NCBI RefSeq assembly: GCF_032062105.1
Contig: NW_026928226.1
Location: forward strand, 248,001 to 312,000
Direction: 5' to 3'
From: Saccostrea cucullata
Lineage: Eukaryota
Length of the DNA stretch: 64,000 bases
The position numbers and the translations under genes were made by a program. Below, one piece after another: positions 3,985 to 63,464 of the stretch. Numbering within the stretch: position 1 is the stretch's first letter; every line of letters starts with the position of its first letter. Under the pieces are notes generated by a model, which was not told the DNA's origin, made no database searches, and saw only the letters and a program-made list of their open reading frames with translations.

Positions 3985-4560
3985 TTAACATATGTAATGA
4001 GACTGATTTTGTACGATACCGGTTGCATTGTGATGCATGTCTTGTCAACCTGTGCAAGGCCTGCGTTGGAGAACACATATTAAAACATAAATCTAAAGAC
4101 CAAGGAATGATGGTCACATTTGAATCAAGAAATTTCAGTCTTCTCTGCCCTGGATGCGCCTACTATAAAAAAAAGATGCAAGAAGTCTGCAGACATGACA
4201 TTCCGGTCTATCGCACATGTTACAGCACCTTATCAACATCCCAACATCTTAGTCATAAGTAAGGCAAAATCCTGCATGTTCTGGTTGAAAGGGAAAATTG
4301 ATCAGGGAAAAAAAGCCAAATGGGACAATTCCTCCCACCAACCAGGGAATTACAGCTAATGTGCAAAACAGAATGAGTCAATTAGAGAAGGAATATGGAG
4401 ATCTCTCAGGCCCATGGAAAAGCAAATAAACAGAACTGGCACAGAAAAATTAATATAAATATCCACACCCAAAACTCAAGTTGATGAAATAAAGACCTCA
4501 TAGCGGGTGAAATTAAAAAAAAATTGGAAAGGGGGGTTAACAAAGGTATCTTCTGCAAAA
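3985..4560 (+). pseudogene. TRIM-like locus A: decayed B-box/coiled-coil 5' fragment
   Basis: HCDACLVNLCKACVGEHI, QHLSHK, LEKEYGDLS and KTQVDEIKTS match the intact paralogs; multiple frameshifts and stops; no NHL part seen; ends approximate. Confidence 0.85.
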
Positions 4561-4714
4561 TATAAATAAAATCCATTTCTAGGAATATTTATTGATATCT
4601 TTAACTTTTATAAAGTTTTGTTTCTGAGCAATTCGTCTGCAATAAGAATTATAAAATACAGAATATTATTTAAGCTCAAAAGTCCATTAAGCAAACCAAA
4701 ATTGGAGTAGAGCA

Positions 4715-4965
4715 AACAATTTTTGCTTTATATGAATACAAAAATAGATCTACTAATAAAGGGGCGCAAATCGTACCCATGGGATTTCGAATAGATTGTT
4801 GGAAGACTTGGTCTCAAAAAACATAAAAGATACTGTCAATCAAAAACTCAGCCATCTTTTTGGTGTCTACTTCAGAGTACTTGTGTGCGTAATCAGAATG
4901 TTTTAACGAAATAACTTTGCGAATGACCAGTGACAAGGTAAGTAAATTCACGGGTACCATTTTAA
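4715..4965 (-). mobile_element. Penelope-like (Naiad) RT fragment
   Basis: Homologous to ~49630-49880 (IPMGTxxAPL..DLFLYSY and YSEVD regions); degenerate. Confidence 0.8.
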
Positions 4966-5114
4966 ATGCAAAAACAGCAGTCTAAAGCATGTTTCTTATA
5001 AAATTAACAATAACCAAACTTTATTAGCACTAACAAAATACAATGTAATCCTATGCTTCATTTTCTTTCTCAATATTCTCAATATTTTTCTTTAAATTTT
5101 ACTTTCATTAGTTA

Positions 5115-5239
5115 CATGAATGATATGGAGATAAGGAACAATATTCAATCTCAAAGACCATAAAACAATACAAAATAGGAGCAGTGCAAACACGGACTTT
5201 CGAAACATCAGAGTGCCATGGAGGAGTGAACATCATGAA
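5115..5239 (-). mobile_element. Naiad PLE 3'-end fragment
   Basis: Matches 48865-48995 with an internal deletion; CATGAA on both sides; the paralogous segment near 15050 lacks it. Confidence 0.75.
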
Positions 5240-5353
5240 GAAAGGTATATTTGTGAAGCATTATTTAGGAAGAACAGAGAATATTCTTATTTTAATGCCA
5301 TATTTATATTATCTATTTATTAAAAAGAGTCCTTTTTACTAAAGTACTTTATT

Positions 5354-60747: not shown

Positions 60748-60950
60748 TTTACGCAAGAGCATGCCCTACGTATGAAAAATTTCTAAAACGAAGTAAATTA
60801 TTAACAAGCAAGTTGATGAAACAAGAATATCAACAGTTTCGTGTAAAGTCTTCATTTCGTAAATTTTTTGGTTGCTACAATGACCTTGTCAGCAAATACA
60901 ATTTATCATTGAGTCAAATACTGACTGACGTTTTTCATACTTATTGTTAG
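60748..60950 (+). mobile_element. Naiad RT thumb/C-terminal fragment (opposite orientation to the other copies)
   Basis: YARACPTYEKFLKRSKLLTSKLMKQEYQ..SSFRKF..YNDLVSKYNLSLSQILTDVFHTYC* matches the 49090-49551 ORF. Confidence 0.9.
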
Positions 60951-61126
60951 TCCATTTTTACTTAAACATCACGTCTTTATAAACATATATGGGTGCTAAT
61001 TTCAATTCTCTCTTTCAATACTACTTTCAAGCAGTCTTGATATTGAAACACATTTAAGGAATGCTTTTAAGTTTTGTGTGTCTTATATTTACATTTTACA
61101 TGTTTGAAAGCACCATAAGTATAGTA

Positions 61127-61213
61127 GTTGAATATCTCGCTGCCCTATATCGTTGACGTTTTACTTACGTTGCTAAAGCTTCATTGTGACGTCACAATAG
61201 CGAGAAATTCAAC
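61127..61213. mobile_element. Small MITE remnant
   Basis: GTTGAATATCTCGCT / AGCGAGAAATTCAAC; internal palindrome ATTGTGACGTCACAAT. Confidence 0.5.
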
Positions 61214-61640
61214 GTATATATTTGTACGCGTGATTATACACGATTAAAGTCTTCAAATTGATTTAAAACAGTTGGCTTAGTAAAAAAAACGCAGCTAGTG
61301 TAAATAAATGTATATATGTTTGTGTTTGTATATCCCAAATCCCTATTTGTCAGTCAAACAATGTGAAAAGTTCCCTCTTTTAAGTCACTGACAGTGTTTT
61401 AATGACAAGAATTAGTCCATGTGAAATCTATGAAGGCTAACAGGACATGAGTTTAGCCTGGCACTGATTTTGTTCAAAATACTTTGGGCTTAGTGGGGTT
61501 AAAAACATCGGGTGGTTTTATTCTTCAGAGAACATTGGCATTCACTAGTACGGTTACCGTATTTGTTAAGTACATTCCTTGAAATGTTTTCAAACAATGA
61601 ATTTAAAGCTTTTACCATTTCAGAGCCGTAAGGATAAGGA

Positions 61641-63464
61641 ATGGATCCCCGTATCAGTGCCCAGGATTTGATGCGATGTGACCACTGCGAGACTGCTATA
61701 GTACAGATGCACTGTGATACATGCCTCGTCAACCTGTGCAAAGCCTGTGTGGGAGAACACATCTCAATCGCTGGATCCAAGGATCACAAGGTGGTCAATT
61801 TTCAGTTAAAGAATTCTATTCCCCTCTTCCCTGAATGTACCTCCCATGAAAAAGAACAATGCGAGATGTACTGTAAACATTGTGACATCCCTGTCTGTCA
61901 AACTTGCCTGGCATCTGATCAACACCTAGGTCATAAGTTATCAAAAATCTTGAACGTAGTCAGTGAAAAGAAAGACTTGATAAGGAAAGAGCAAAACGAA
62001 TTAAAGGGAACAATTTATCCAACCTATCAGGGCATTGCAGCAGATACGCAAAACAAAATGCGTCAGTTAGAAAAGGAATACGGAGAGCTCTCAACAGCTA
62101 TAACAAAACATGGAGAGGACTTGCACAGAGAAATTGACAAACTTGTCAGTAAACTGAAGGCTCAAGTTGAAAAAATGAAGACTTCACAGTTACAAACTTT
62201 ACAGACACAGCTTGATGAAATCAACAAGAATGTTACTGACATTAAAGATACCCTTGATATTGCTGTAGACTCTAATGACATTTCAAAACTATGCAGTGTA
62301 AAATTACGTGTAGATCAATATAAAAACCTTCCACAAAAGCATGTTCTGTCTGTGCCGAAATTCACTCCAGGGACAACCAAAAGTGATGAACTTTGTAAAT
62401 TGTTTGGAGATTTATCATCAATTTCTGTTAAATCGGAGGAGCATGGATACCGTATTACGAAATCACAAAAATCACCAGAAATGGAAACTCCAGAAGTTAA
62501 TTCTCCCTCATTCAATCAAAAAACACTAGAAAGAAGATGTCAACCTGTCAGACCAGTAAAAAGATTCCTTCAGATACCAAAGATTCATTCTGAAAGTATT
62601 GCATATTTTGGCTACTTTCTAAATGTTGCAAGTTTGAGAAACGAACAGATATGGGTATGTGGAAGTAGCAAAAGGATGGACCTCTACAGAATCGAGGAGT
62701 ACTTTCGATGTACCCTCGACTATCAGAAACCACCACTGAAAACAATCACAACAAAATCAGGAAACAGGCCATCAGACATAGCGGTGTCAAGAAGTGGATA
62801 TCTTATTAACTCTGATTACATGGATAGGACTGTTAACATTGTGGAGAATAATTCAAACATAAAGGCGGTGATCAGACTGCAAAAGTGGAGACCTGGAGCT
62901 GTATGCAGCACTTCTACTAATGACCTCTTGGTTACATTGGAAAGTAATGACAGAAATCATTCAAAAGTTGTCCGATACTCTGACTTCAAAGAGAAACAAT
63001 CCATTCAGTTTGATCATACTTGTACACCTCTTTATTCATCTGGATTTTCTTTAAAATACATATGCGAAAACAGGAACCTTGATATCTGTGTAGCAGACTG
63101 CGGAGCTAGGGCGTTAGTGGTGGTCAATCAGGCGGGGAAATTTAGATTCATATATTACGGACATACTCCTTCTCCAAAGCATCAACCATTCAGTCCATGT
63201 GGTATCACAACAGACAGTCAGTGCCACATCCTTACAAGTGATGATAACAATTACTGTGTTCACATCCTAAATGAGGATGGAGCGTTCCTACGTTTCATAA
63301 ACTGTGGGGAAACATTTAAACTACATGGACTGTGTACAAATGCTAGTGACAATCTGTTTGTTCTTAGTTCCAGAGGATACACATTTCAAGATGTTGTAAA
63401 CTTTTTTCGGTCTGATGCTAATTCAGATATTTATAATGTGATGAAAATCAAATATTTACAGTGA
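61641..63464 (+). CDS. TRIM-like locus G: RING-less B-box/B-box/coiled-coil/NHL protein, 607 aa, intact
   Basis: Uninterrupted ORF MDPRISAQD...KIKYLQ*; acceptor TTTCAG at 61623; AATAAA at 63521. Confidence 0.93.
   Translation: MDPRISAQDLMRCDHCETAIVQMHCDTCLVNLCKACVGEHISIAGSKDHKVVNFQLKNSIPLFPECTSHEKEQCEMYCKHCDIPVCQTCLASDQHLGHKLSKILNVVSEKKDLIRKEQNELKGTIYPTYQGIAADTQNKMRQLEKEYGELSTAITKHGEDLHREIDKLVSKLKAQVEKMKTSQLQTLQTQLDEINKNVTDIKDTLDIAVDSNDISKLCSVKLRVDQYKNLPQKHVLSVPKFTPGTTKSDELCKLFGDLSSISVKSEEHGYRITKSQKSPEMETPEVNSPSFNQKTLERRCQPVRPVKRFLQIPKIHSESIAYFGYFLNVASLRNEQIWVCGSSKRMDLYRIEEYFRCTLDYQKPPLKTITTKSGNRPSDIAVSRSGYLINSDYMDRTVNIVENNSNIKAVIRLQKWRPGAVCSTSTNDLLVTLESNDRNHSKVVRYSDFKEKQSIQFDHTCTPLYSSGFSLKYICENRNLDICVADCGARALVVVNQAGKFRFIYYGHTPSPKHQPFSPCGITTDSQCHILTSDDNNYCVHILNEDGAFLRFINCGETFKLHGLCTNASDNLFVLSSRGYTFQDVVNFFRSDANSDIYNVMKIKYLQ

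Follow-up and report, generated by a model that had tools for sequence, protein, structure and literature searches.

What do the tandem B-box/NHL genes of this oyster locus encode, and could they form a diversified immune or restriction repertoire? The whole stretch of DNA that was analysed (64 kb, hereafter the window) was searched with tblastn and with a DNA profile built from the five long copies. We found nine B-box/NHL copies, all on the forward strand (table 1): two intact genes, three genes broken by single recent-looking lesions, and four relics. The initial annotation had counted seven co-oriented paralogs; the shared orientation holds, but the number does not, and our guess is that the two missed copies are the relics at 5978 and 15344 (70% in a self-blast of 5960-6759 against 15326-16068). 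It was right that only two copies, g2 and g7, are cleanly intact, the others carrying lesions. Proteins P0157 and P0371 suggest that further family copies lie outside the window.

Table 1. Gene copies, relics and transposable elements located in the 64-kb window
Feature	Position	Strand	Description or basis
Relic copy	3998..4504	+	B-boxes and start of coiled coil, with stops/frameshifts; nhmmer E 4e-74, translations
Fragment of RT element, after the 3998 relic	4718-4982		blastn vs g5 insert
Relic copy	5978..6187	+	B-box 1 region; nhmmer E 5e-12
g2	8865..10871	+	Intact, intronless, uninterrupted CDS, 668 aa; B-box/B-box/coiled coil/long Pro-Ser linker/NHL
Relic copy	15344..15527	+	B-box 1 region, resembles 5978 relic; nhmmer E 6e-11
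Relic copy	27600..27906	+	End of coiled coil; nhmmer E 2e-33
g3	35681..37425	+	Full-length; 1-nt deletion near 37310 shifts blade 6 out of frame
g4	41873..44354	+	Full-length; broken by out-of-frame 731-bp tandem duplication
g5	48334..52566	+	Full-length; split by RT element, plus +1 frameshift near 51980
Presumed reverse-transcriptase (RT) element within g5	48865..51054	-	TTAAT target-site duplication at 48860 and 51055
Harbinger-type DNA transposon	52610..56350	.	Terminal inverted repeats, CAG target duplication
DDE transposase of Harbinger-type element	53007-54047	+
Myb/SANT gene of Harbinger-type element	54693-55439	-
g7	61641..63464	+	Intact, intronless, uninterrupted CDS, 607 aa

The lesions are of different kinds. 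The two units of the g4 duplication (42342-43068 and 43069-43799) differ by one substitution and a 4-nt deletion. In a related oyster (organism A), DNA depth at 42690-43355 was 10.5, whereas unique bins had about 22, which hints that this duplication is absent there. The 2.19-kb insert of g5, which we take from its motifs to be a reverse-transcriptase, Penelope-like element, carries an ORF without a match in Pfam or PDB searches, and the +1 shift of the same gene sits in a run of G. Only 43 bp past the g5 stop the Harbinger-type transposon begins, and the locus as a whole is dense in transposons. Judged from the sequences, gene death in the window looks recent. The locus had been described as one of rapid birth and death; the lesions uphold the second half of that description, but not the first, the five paralogs having accumulated 0.3-0.5 neutral substitutions per site on each terminal branch.

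The gene structure is largely as first described. A pyrimidine-rich AG lies 6-17 nt upstream of the ATG in all five long copies (about 11% in random 20-nt windows), in keeping with the splice acceptor proposed at 6-18 bp. Two in-frame TAA codons separate acceptor and ATG in g7, while the other four long copies are open there. No splice joint was found among the matches listed, 2,516 further joints lying beyond these, and the reads over 32700-52650 were dominated by the RT element. Pfam identified two B-boxes (PF00643 twice) in the N-terminal part of each long copy and NHL in four of the five, g7 being the exception, and no RING in any of them. Neither a RING nor a CxHxFCxxC motif occurs in the six frames of the whole window, and no RING motif was found in the first 250 residues of 415 family proteins; in 105 of 120 relatives the first B-box Cys is already at residue 13-14. 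The proposal that the genes are RING-less is thereby borne out by domain search, six-frame motif search and relatives alike. They lack the N-terminal RING finger of a canonical TRIM (RBCC) E3 ligase and retain its B-boxes and its antiparallel-dimer coiled coil, the dimer by prediction only. Their layout, two B-boxes, a coiled coil and a six-bladed NHL propeller, is that of the RING-less Brat and Wech.

For the N-terminal half, the dimer model scored 0.60 against 0.00 for the best control (pLDDT 80), with antiparallel contacts that agreed at least 97% between runs; the mark applied to this score is reached by 17 of 29 eukaryotic homodimers and by none of 30 single chains. TRIM dimer structures have already been solved, so the pass may reflect prior exposure of the predictor to them. 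The N-terminal half is thus predicted to be an antiparallel TRIM-type dimer, as expected of the fixed oligomerisation module that had been postulated.

Residues 300-607 of g7 were modelled as a six-bladed NHL propeller (pLDDT 88.9) with a helical insertion in the b-c loop of blade 6, on the top face. Its best PDB matches were the NHL domains of TRIM2, Thin, TRIM3 and TRIM71, at 13-20% identity. The family to which it belongs is a huge oyster expansion (1,569 relatives), the best 120 matches being the window's own protein and 119 proteins of Saccostrea, Ostrea and Crassostrea/Magallana. Variability was mapped on 101 paralogs (median identity 77%, 270 propeller columns, a variable column having an entropy of at least 2 bits), with top and bottom faces defined as in PMC4015489. 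The 27 variable columns included 21 of the 76 positions in top loops and none of the 51 in bottom loops (Fisher p 1e-5); the other six were four strand ends adjoining top loops, one closing strand and one C-terminal position. Variation had been noticed in the linker, the first blades and the last loop. It extends beyond these blades and this loop: family-wide, the top loops of all six blades vary. A split-half control gave the same picture: the closest pairs were 87% identical in the propeller framework and 28% identical at variable sites defined from the other half. Within 90% clusters (alleles or close copies), differences fell on 11 of 143 variable and 57 of 1,505 other propeller sites; at p 0.04 the excess is weak and not MHC-like.

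Selection was then estimated on an independent set of 24 family coding sequences from metagenome contigs, with the variable sites defined beforehand on the paralogs (custom GY94 code, scaled branch lengths, naive empirical Bayes, recombination ignored). At these sites dN/dS was 1.45, compared with 0.25-0.46 elsewhere (LRT against 1, 30.6), and M8 was preferred over M8a (LRT 65.7). Posteriors above 0.9 were obtained for 21 sites: 17 belong to top loops, 3 to strands and 1 to a bottom loop. The estimate rose to 1.53 with 12 sites away from indels and 1.68 with 8 full-length loci, and was stable under three codon-frequency models and a separate rate. These results showed that the propeller top face of the wider family is hypervariable, with dN/dS above 1. 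A mostly neutral expansion, in which intronless genes are easily copied in a repeat-rich genome and their loops drift free of constraint, would account for the many relics and broken copies, the low read depth and the ratio close to 1 that variable sites show among the window's own genes. It does not predict the conservation of bottom-face loops (mean entropy 0.32 bits against 1.33 bits on top), the constrained framework, or the ratio above 1 in an independent set; for the family it is largely refuted, and we regard it as very improbable.

Since the top face has diversified under positive selection, the genes likely form a repertoire of intracellular sensors, and the question becomes which known system they resemble. 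The first candidate is the TRIM-NHL group (Brat, Wech, Mei-P26, Thin, TRIM2/3 and LIN-41/TRIM71; Marin's subfamily C, with Brat and Wech listed as TRIM-like), which has the two B-boxes, coiled coil and six-bladed NHL propeller of the oyster family. Unlike these proteins, the oyster genes have an intronless CDS and neither a RING nor space for a filamin domain, and they comprise well over a thousand related proteins across a few oyster species. RNA-binding translational regulators of the Brat/LIN-41 kind, each tuned to different host mRNAs, would share layout and fold with the oyster proteins, and Brat binds RNA with the face that is variable here (PMC4015489). RNA-binding TRIM-NHLs, however, number 3-5 genes per genome and present a positive face according to that source, as opposed to a large, positively selected repertoire whose top face is not uniformly positive: by residue count over 81 approximate positions, which is not an electrostatic calculation, net charge ran from -7 to +6 among the 101 paralogs (median -1) and from -6 to +3 in the window's five genes. 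We therefore consider RNA regulation quite unlikely. The second candidate, teleost finTRIMs and the mammalian TRIM5/TRIM22 clusters, shows clustered lineage-specific expansion and combines a conserved N-terminal module with a positively selected C-terminal binding domain (PMC2657112), and so does the wider oyster family, the window's five genes not being significant on the last point. The oyster sensor is an NHL propeller rather than B30.2/PRYSPRY, and it lacks the RING. Virus induction and antiviral activity have been reported for the finTRIM/TRIM5/TRIM22 families. The best reading of the analysis is that the family may be a finTRIM-like, diversified intracellular binding repertoire without a RING of its own.

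The window's copies behave differently from the wider family. They form a separate, divergent clade (support 0.997-1.0) with extended last loops and linkers. Their dN/dS was 0.93 at variable sites against 0.37 elsewhere (LRT 37.8); the former was indistinguishable from 1 (p 0.67), and M8 against M8a was not significant (p 0.23), five sequences having little power. Site-level M8 posteriors were accordingly discarded for these genes. The site-model check thus located positive selection on the propeller surface of the wider family, but not in the window's five genes. Counterparts were identified for g2 (P0121, 79% identity), g3 (P0093 of S. echinata, intact, 75%), the g4 propeller (P0365, 81%) and g5 (P0029, 85-86% across the N- and C-terminal pieces), the first top-face loop of g5 containing a Gly/Tyr/Pro-rich insertion. 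Four counterpart pairs conserve 76 of 102 variable sites and 790 of 963 other propeller sites. The four last-loop strings quoted in the initial annotation are present as given, but they are subfamily signatures, kept in counterparts at 28 of 35 positions, and the last loop was dropped as a hypervariable site of this cluster. A hypervariable sensor is supported for the family but not for the window, where the faces are largely kept. The cluster represents an older offshoot in which change at the binding faces has mostly ceased, and is best read as a specialised, partly decaying branch of the family. It would be a step further to suppose that the cluster has left the arms race altogether and consists of old, sub-functionalised paralogs, each tied to a fixed host or stress-related partner, that have become partly redundant and are disappearing. 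The separate clade, the old splits, the conserved faces and last loops and the loss of three of five long copies agree with this. Yet variable sites evolve 2.5 times faster than the remaining propeller among the five genes, g7 and P0005 have only 9 of 16 variable sites in common despite 95% identity in B-boxes and coil, and a fixed face would also be compatible with a slowly changing microbial ligand; we find such a retirement improbable.

Expression data and published work bear on what the propellers may bind. In the related oyster, poly(A) reads over 32700-52650 covered specific parts of g3, g4 and g5 at low depth (about 1-7 in each mate direction), compared with 0 on three unique intergenic bins. 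RNA contigs also cover intergenic DNA and were left out as transcription evidence. The expansion itself has already been annotated and tabulated in print. In mussel, 1,133 B-box-profile and 1,410 six-bladed-propeller entries are given, and both domains are enriched among dispensable genes (PMC7653742 Table S52). Oyster and mussel genes automatically annotated as 'TRIM2/3/55/71-like' or 'uncharacterized' belong to the same family as the window's copies, and published label-based work treats such genes as RING E3 ligases. Our search of the open-access literature revealed nothing published on how this bivalve family is selected or structured; expansion of these domains may be recorded with the Saccostrea genome (PMC6289776). 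TRIM2/3-like transcripts track disease tolerance or resistance in oysters (PMC9892467, PMC6971885), the genes being named by BLAST label and not by sequence. When 11 sequence-verified C. virginica family accessions were searched in full, none occurred in a Perkinsus-tolerance expression table, which held only two accession neighbours of family members, one of them up and the other down; expression differences between families may stem from genotype and not from induction. An identical selection signature would arise if the propellers recognised fast-evolving endogenous targets rather than infectious agents, such as selfish genetic elements (through transposon proteins or RNAs) or, as modular adaptors, host substrates. 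The locus is transposon-dense, and the RT element inserted in g5 is very deep in both DNA and poly(A) runs of organism A. The published oyster work, on the other hand, ties TRIM-labelled transcripts to pathogens, by label and not by sequence, and we consider an endogenous target unlikely, though somewhat less so than the cluster's retirement.

With moderate confidence, we propose that these RING-less TRIM-like proteins are likely a repertoire of intracellular sensors, each one predicted to form dimers and to bind a different, probably pathogen-derived ligand; an immune or restriction role is what we infer for the family. An antiparallel coiled-coil dimer, as modelled, would present two propellers, and the top face of each would read its own, probably pathogen-derived, ligand. 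Weak binding might be made avid through B-box-driven assembly on a repetitive target, and output could proceed via sequestration, autophagy or RING-bearing partners; both steps are drawn from TRIM5/finTRIM biology. Members of the cluster would have gained their own binding face after duplication and largely kept it since then, three of the five long copies having recently been broken. A bolder version, that bivalves and perhaps echinoderms have an unrecognised germline repertoire of hundreds of cytosolic propeller receptors, is speculative and in our view rather doubtful. In such receptors, twelve CDR-like loop segments on one NHL face would read pathogen surfaces, and RING-less B-box/coiled-coil scaffolds would co-assemble and deliver the captured target either to autophagy or to a small number of RING-bearing partners. 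If true, these receptors would be an invertebrate counterpart of TRIM5/finTRIM restriction on a different fold.

Studies of oyster disease repeatedly name TRIM2/3-like genes as candidates for resistance or tolerance and interpret them as RING E3 ligases, but the RING is missing in all members examined here and one defined surface bears an arms-race signature. A vague annotation thereby gives way to testable hypotheses, with 26 residues mapped, paralogs named and a dimer scaffold predicted. The window itself is less dynamic than the family at large. The wider family, as its sequences suggest, is likely an overlooked set of intracellular immune sensors, which would bear on specific intracellular recognition in animals without adaptive immunity and on breeding for disease resistance.

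We found nine copies of one gene, all in the same orientation, in the window by tblastn and an nhmmer profile, and the base composition was that of AT-rich animal DNA. The initial annotation had described seven co-oriented copies; the array and its orientation held, while the count was too low. It was right that only two copies, g2 and g7, are cleanly intact. The other three long copies are broken: g3 by a single 1-nt deletion near 37310, g4 by an out-of-frame 731-bp tandem duplication with short microhomology at its junction, and g5 by an inserted 2.19-kb reverse-transcriptase (RT) element, whose target duplication is TTAAT, and by a +1 frameshift within a run of G. 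Since one substitution and a 4-nt deletion are all that separates the copies of the g4 duplication, this event is very recent; the single-base shifts of g3 and g5 could be assembly errors. A pyrimidine-rich AG lies 6–17 nt 5' of the ATG in all five long copies (11% of random windows show the same pattern), in line with the splice acceptor proposed there. An assembly gap inside the array makes spacing and copy number across it uncertain, and the array likely extends past the window, as the S. cucullata proteins P0157 and P0371 suggest.

Gene copies and other features of the window
Feature	Position	Description
g2	8865-10871	intact copy
g7	61641-63464	intact copy
g3	35681-37425	full length, broken
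g4	41873-44354	full length, broken
g5	48334-52566	full length, broken
Relic copies	starts 3998, 5978, 15344, 27600	tblastn/nhmmer
P0124	9624-10871	database gene model for g2
Low-complexity insertion	~51480-51770	~90 aa, Gly/Tyr/Pro-rich, first top-face loop of g5
RT element	48865-51054
RT element pieces	4718-4982, 5118-5234, 13288-13390, 15196-15300, 31482-31591, 45319-45406, 60750-60959	seven pieces
Harbinger transposon	52610-56350	apparently complete
Assembly gap	25468-25600	133-base N run
51-bp tandem repeats	16689-16891	array related to the next, opposite orientation
51-bp tandem repeats	27262-27467	directly upstream of the 27600 relic

The RT element family was inserted repeatedly in the cluster and is extremely abundant in the DNA and poly(A) runs of a related oyster (organism A); its 478-aa ORF had no Pfam match. 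The Harbinger transposon, directly 3' of the g5 stop, has two open ORFs, terminal inverted repeats and a CAG target duplication, and is possibly still mobile. The P0124 model starts at Met254, with an AG 28 nt before it, and contains only linker and propeller; either a propeller-only isoform or a gene-model artefact may explain this. The insertion in g5 is common to its counterpart, P0029.

In Pfam all five long copies matched B-boxes and four of them (not g7) matched NHL, with no match to RING, and no RING motif was found in six frames of the window. In 105 of the best 120 relatives listed, the first B-box cysteine was residue 13 or 14, and a CxHxFCxxC-type motif occurred within the first 250 residues of none of 415 fetched proteins. 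In g7, two in-frame TAA codons between acceptor and ATG rule out that an in-frame coding exon joins at this acceptor; the interval is open in the remaining four long copies. Judged from genomic and protein sequence, these genes appear RING-less, as first annotated. The relatives are numerous: 1,569 of g7 at E≤1e-10 among 4,909 candidates, 395 clusters at 50% identity matching g7 at E≤1e-30, and 1,685 of 2,253 candidates for the g4 propeller at E≤1e-60. Apart from the window's own protein, the best 120 g7 matches listed were all from oysters (119 proteins), under the labels TRIM2/3/25/55/59/71-like, pyrin-like or uncharacterized. Look-alikes in the protein atlas were B-box/NHL clusters from molluscs and also echinoderms; RING-bearing relatives exist, because two of these clusters carry RING in 40% and 69% of members. 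Many relatives (P0122-P0151 and similar) have ~1,100 aa and the appearance of two whole units head to tail; they look like true tandem fusions or merged gene models.

Residues 300-607 of g7 were predicted to form a six-bladed propeller (pLDDT 88.9, pTM 0.88), whose nearest structures, at 13-20% identity, are those of the TRIM2, Thin, TRIM3 and TRIM71 NHL domains. For two copies of residues 1-266 the model is an antiparallel coiled-coil dimer with a score of 0.60 against 0.00 for the best control (pLDDT 80), and at least 97% of contacts agreed between runs. Of 29 eukaryotic homodimers, 17 reached the score mark; of 30 single chains, none did. Because solved structures of TRIM dimers exist, the model shows likeness of the N-terminal half to a TRIM-type antiparallel dimer, not binding. 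The top, ligand-binding face of an NHL propeller comprises the b-c and d-a loops (as described in PMC4015489), and the last loop singled out initially is the blade-6 b-c loop, hence top face under that definition.

Variability was concentrated on this face in 101 aligned proteins (of 161; 550-600 aa, B-box at the start, window clade left out; median identity 77%), which represent one subfamily since they were top matches to g7 and g2. Entropy reached at least 2 bits in 27 of 270 propeller columns, and such positions occupied 21/76 of the top loops versus 0/51 of the bottom loops (Fisher p 1e-5). All six blades supplied variable sites at the same registers, and columns of at least 3 bits numbered 14 in the propeller and none in B-box or coil. 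The 14 most variable sites gave 100 distinct combinations among the 101 proteins. When variable sites were defined on a random half and scored on the other, the closest pairs of the latter shared 87% of residues in the propeller framework and 28% of those at variable sites.

A metagenome scan yielded 76 family loci, presumably bivalve host DNA. We kept the 25 whose reading frame was free of stops across most of the propeller, and 24 of these after removal of the near-duplicate L023. The codon tests used our own GY94 code with IQ-TREE branch lengths and ignored recombination. At 25 alignable pre-defined sites dN/dS was 1.45 (LRT against 1, 30.6), compared with 0.25 in strands, 0.34 in bottom loops and 0.46 at other top-loop sites. 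M8 was preferred over M8a (LRT 65.7; 11% of sites at 1.86), with 17 of 21 flagged sites in top loops. Positive selection was retained with only 12 indel-distant sites, with only 8 full-length loci, in a 5-member close clade (p 0.026), under other codon frequencies and with a separate rate for variable sites (p 0.003). The surface-clustered selection foreseen initially is thus borne out in the wider family.

The window's cluster departs from this pattern. Together with their counterparts, its five long copies group in a separate clade (support 0.997-1.0), in which the terminal branches of the five carry 0.32-0.53 neutral substitutions per site. The dN/dS of the five was 0.25 in B-boxes, 0.39 in coil and 0.75 in linker; at variable sites it was 0.93-0.94, which exceeds the 0.37 of the remaining propeller (LRT 37.8) without passing 1, and the comparison of M8 with M8a was not significant. 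Counterparts, either orthologs or sister paralogs, kept most variable sites (g2/P0121 19/26, g3/P0093 19/25, g5/P0029 19/26, g4/P0365 19/25), compared with 790/963 at the other propeller sites, and 28/35 last-loop positions across the four pairs. The exception was g7/P0005, with 224/235 residues identical in B-boxes and coil and 9/16 variable sites kept. A hypervariable sensor, as originally read here, therefore describes the family and is overstated for this cluster. Organism A also has the g3-g5 region and the sequence flanking it; over 1,228 bp of g3 there are 61 differences and no gap. Coverage by poly(A) reads, mapped at an 86% threshold with paralog cross-mapping possible, was low on specific stretches of g3, g4 and g5 and zero on three unique intergenic bins.

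Our literature search found no description of top-face selection in the oyster B-box/NHL family. PMC9892467 describes a Perkinsus-tolerance module in which 79 transcripts are labelled TRIM, the shared ones mostly TRIM2/3-like, and discusses them as RING ligases; its tables contained none of 11 verified family accessions, and a prefix search turned up XP_022297159 (up) and XP_022297155 (down), which are neighbours by accession. Other studies list TRIMs prominently among genes differing in disease-resistant families (PMC6971885), B-box and six-bladed-propeller domains as enriched in dispensable mussel genes (PMC7653742 Table S52; the main text does not mention the family) and a B-box orthogroup among expanded bivalve families (PMC8382680). 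PMC3503706 and PMC2657112 were also drawn on, and term searches of the accessible text of PMC6289776, PMC4346834, PMC8678459 and PMC9334734 returned nothing on the family.

A common RNA-binding role for the family is disfavoured, because top-face charge spans -7 to +6. We suggest instead that each protein, dimerising as predicted, would present two propellers, the top face of each probably binding its own ligand. No signal peptide was evident on reading the sequence by eye, and an arms-race signature on the binding face of such proteins suggests foreign or selfish ligands; pathogen sensing is the role we favour, with chances about even. By analogy with TRIM biology, output without RING would call for B-box-driven assembly combined with sequestration, autophagy or RING-bearing partners.
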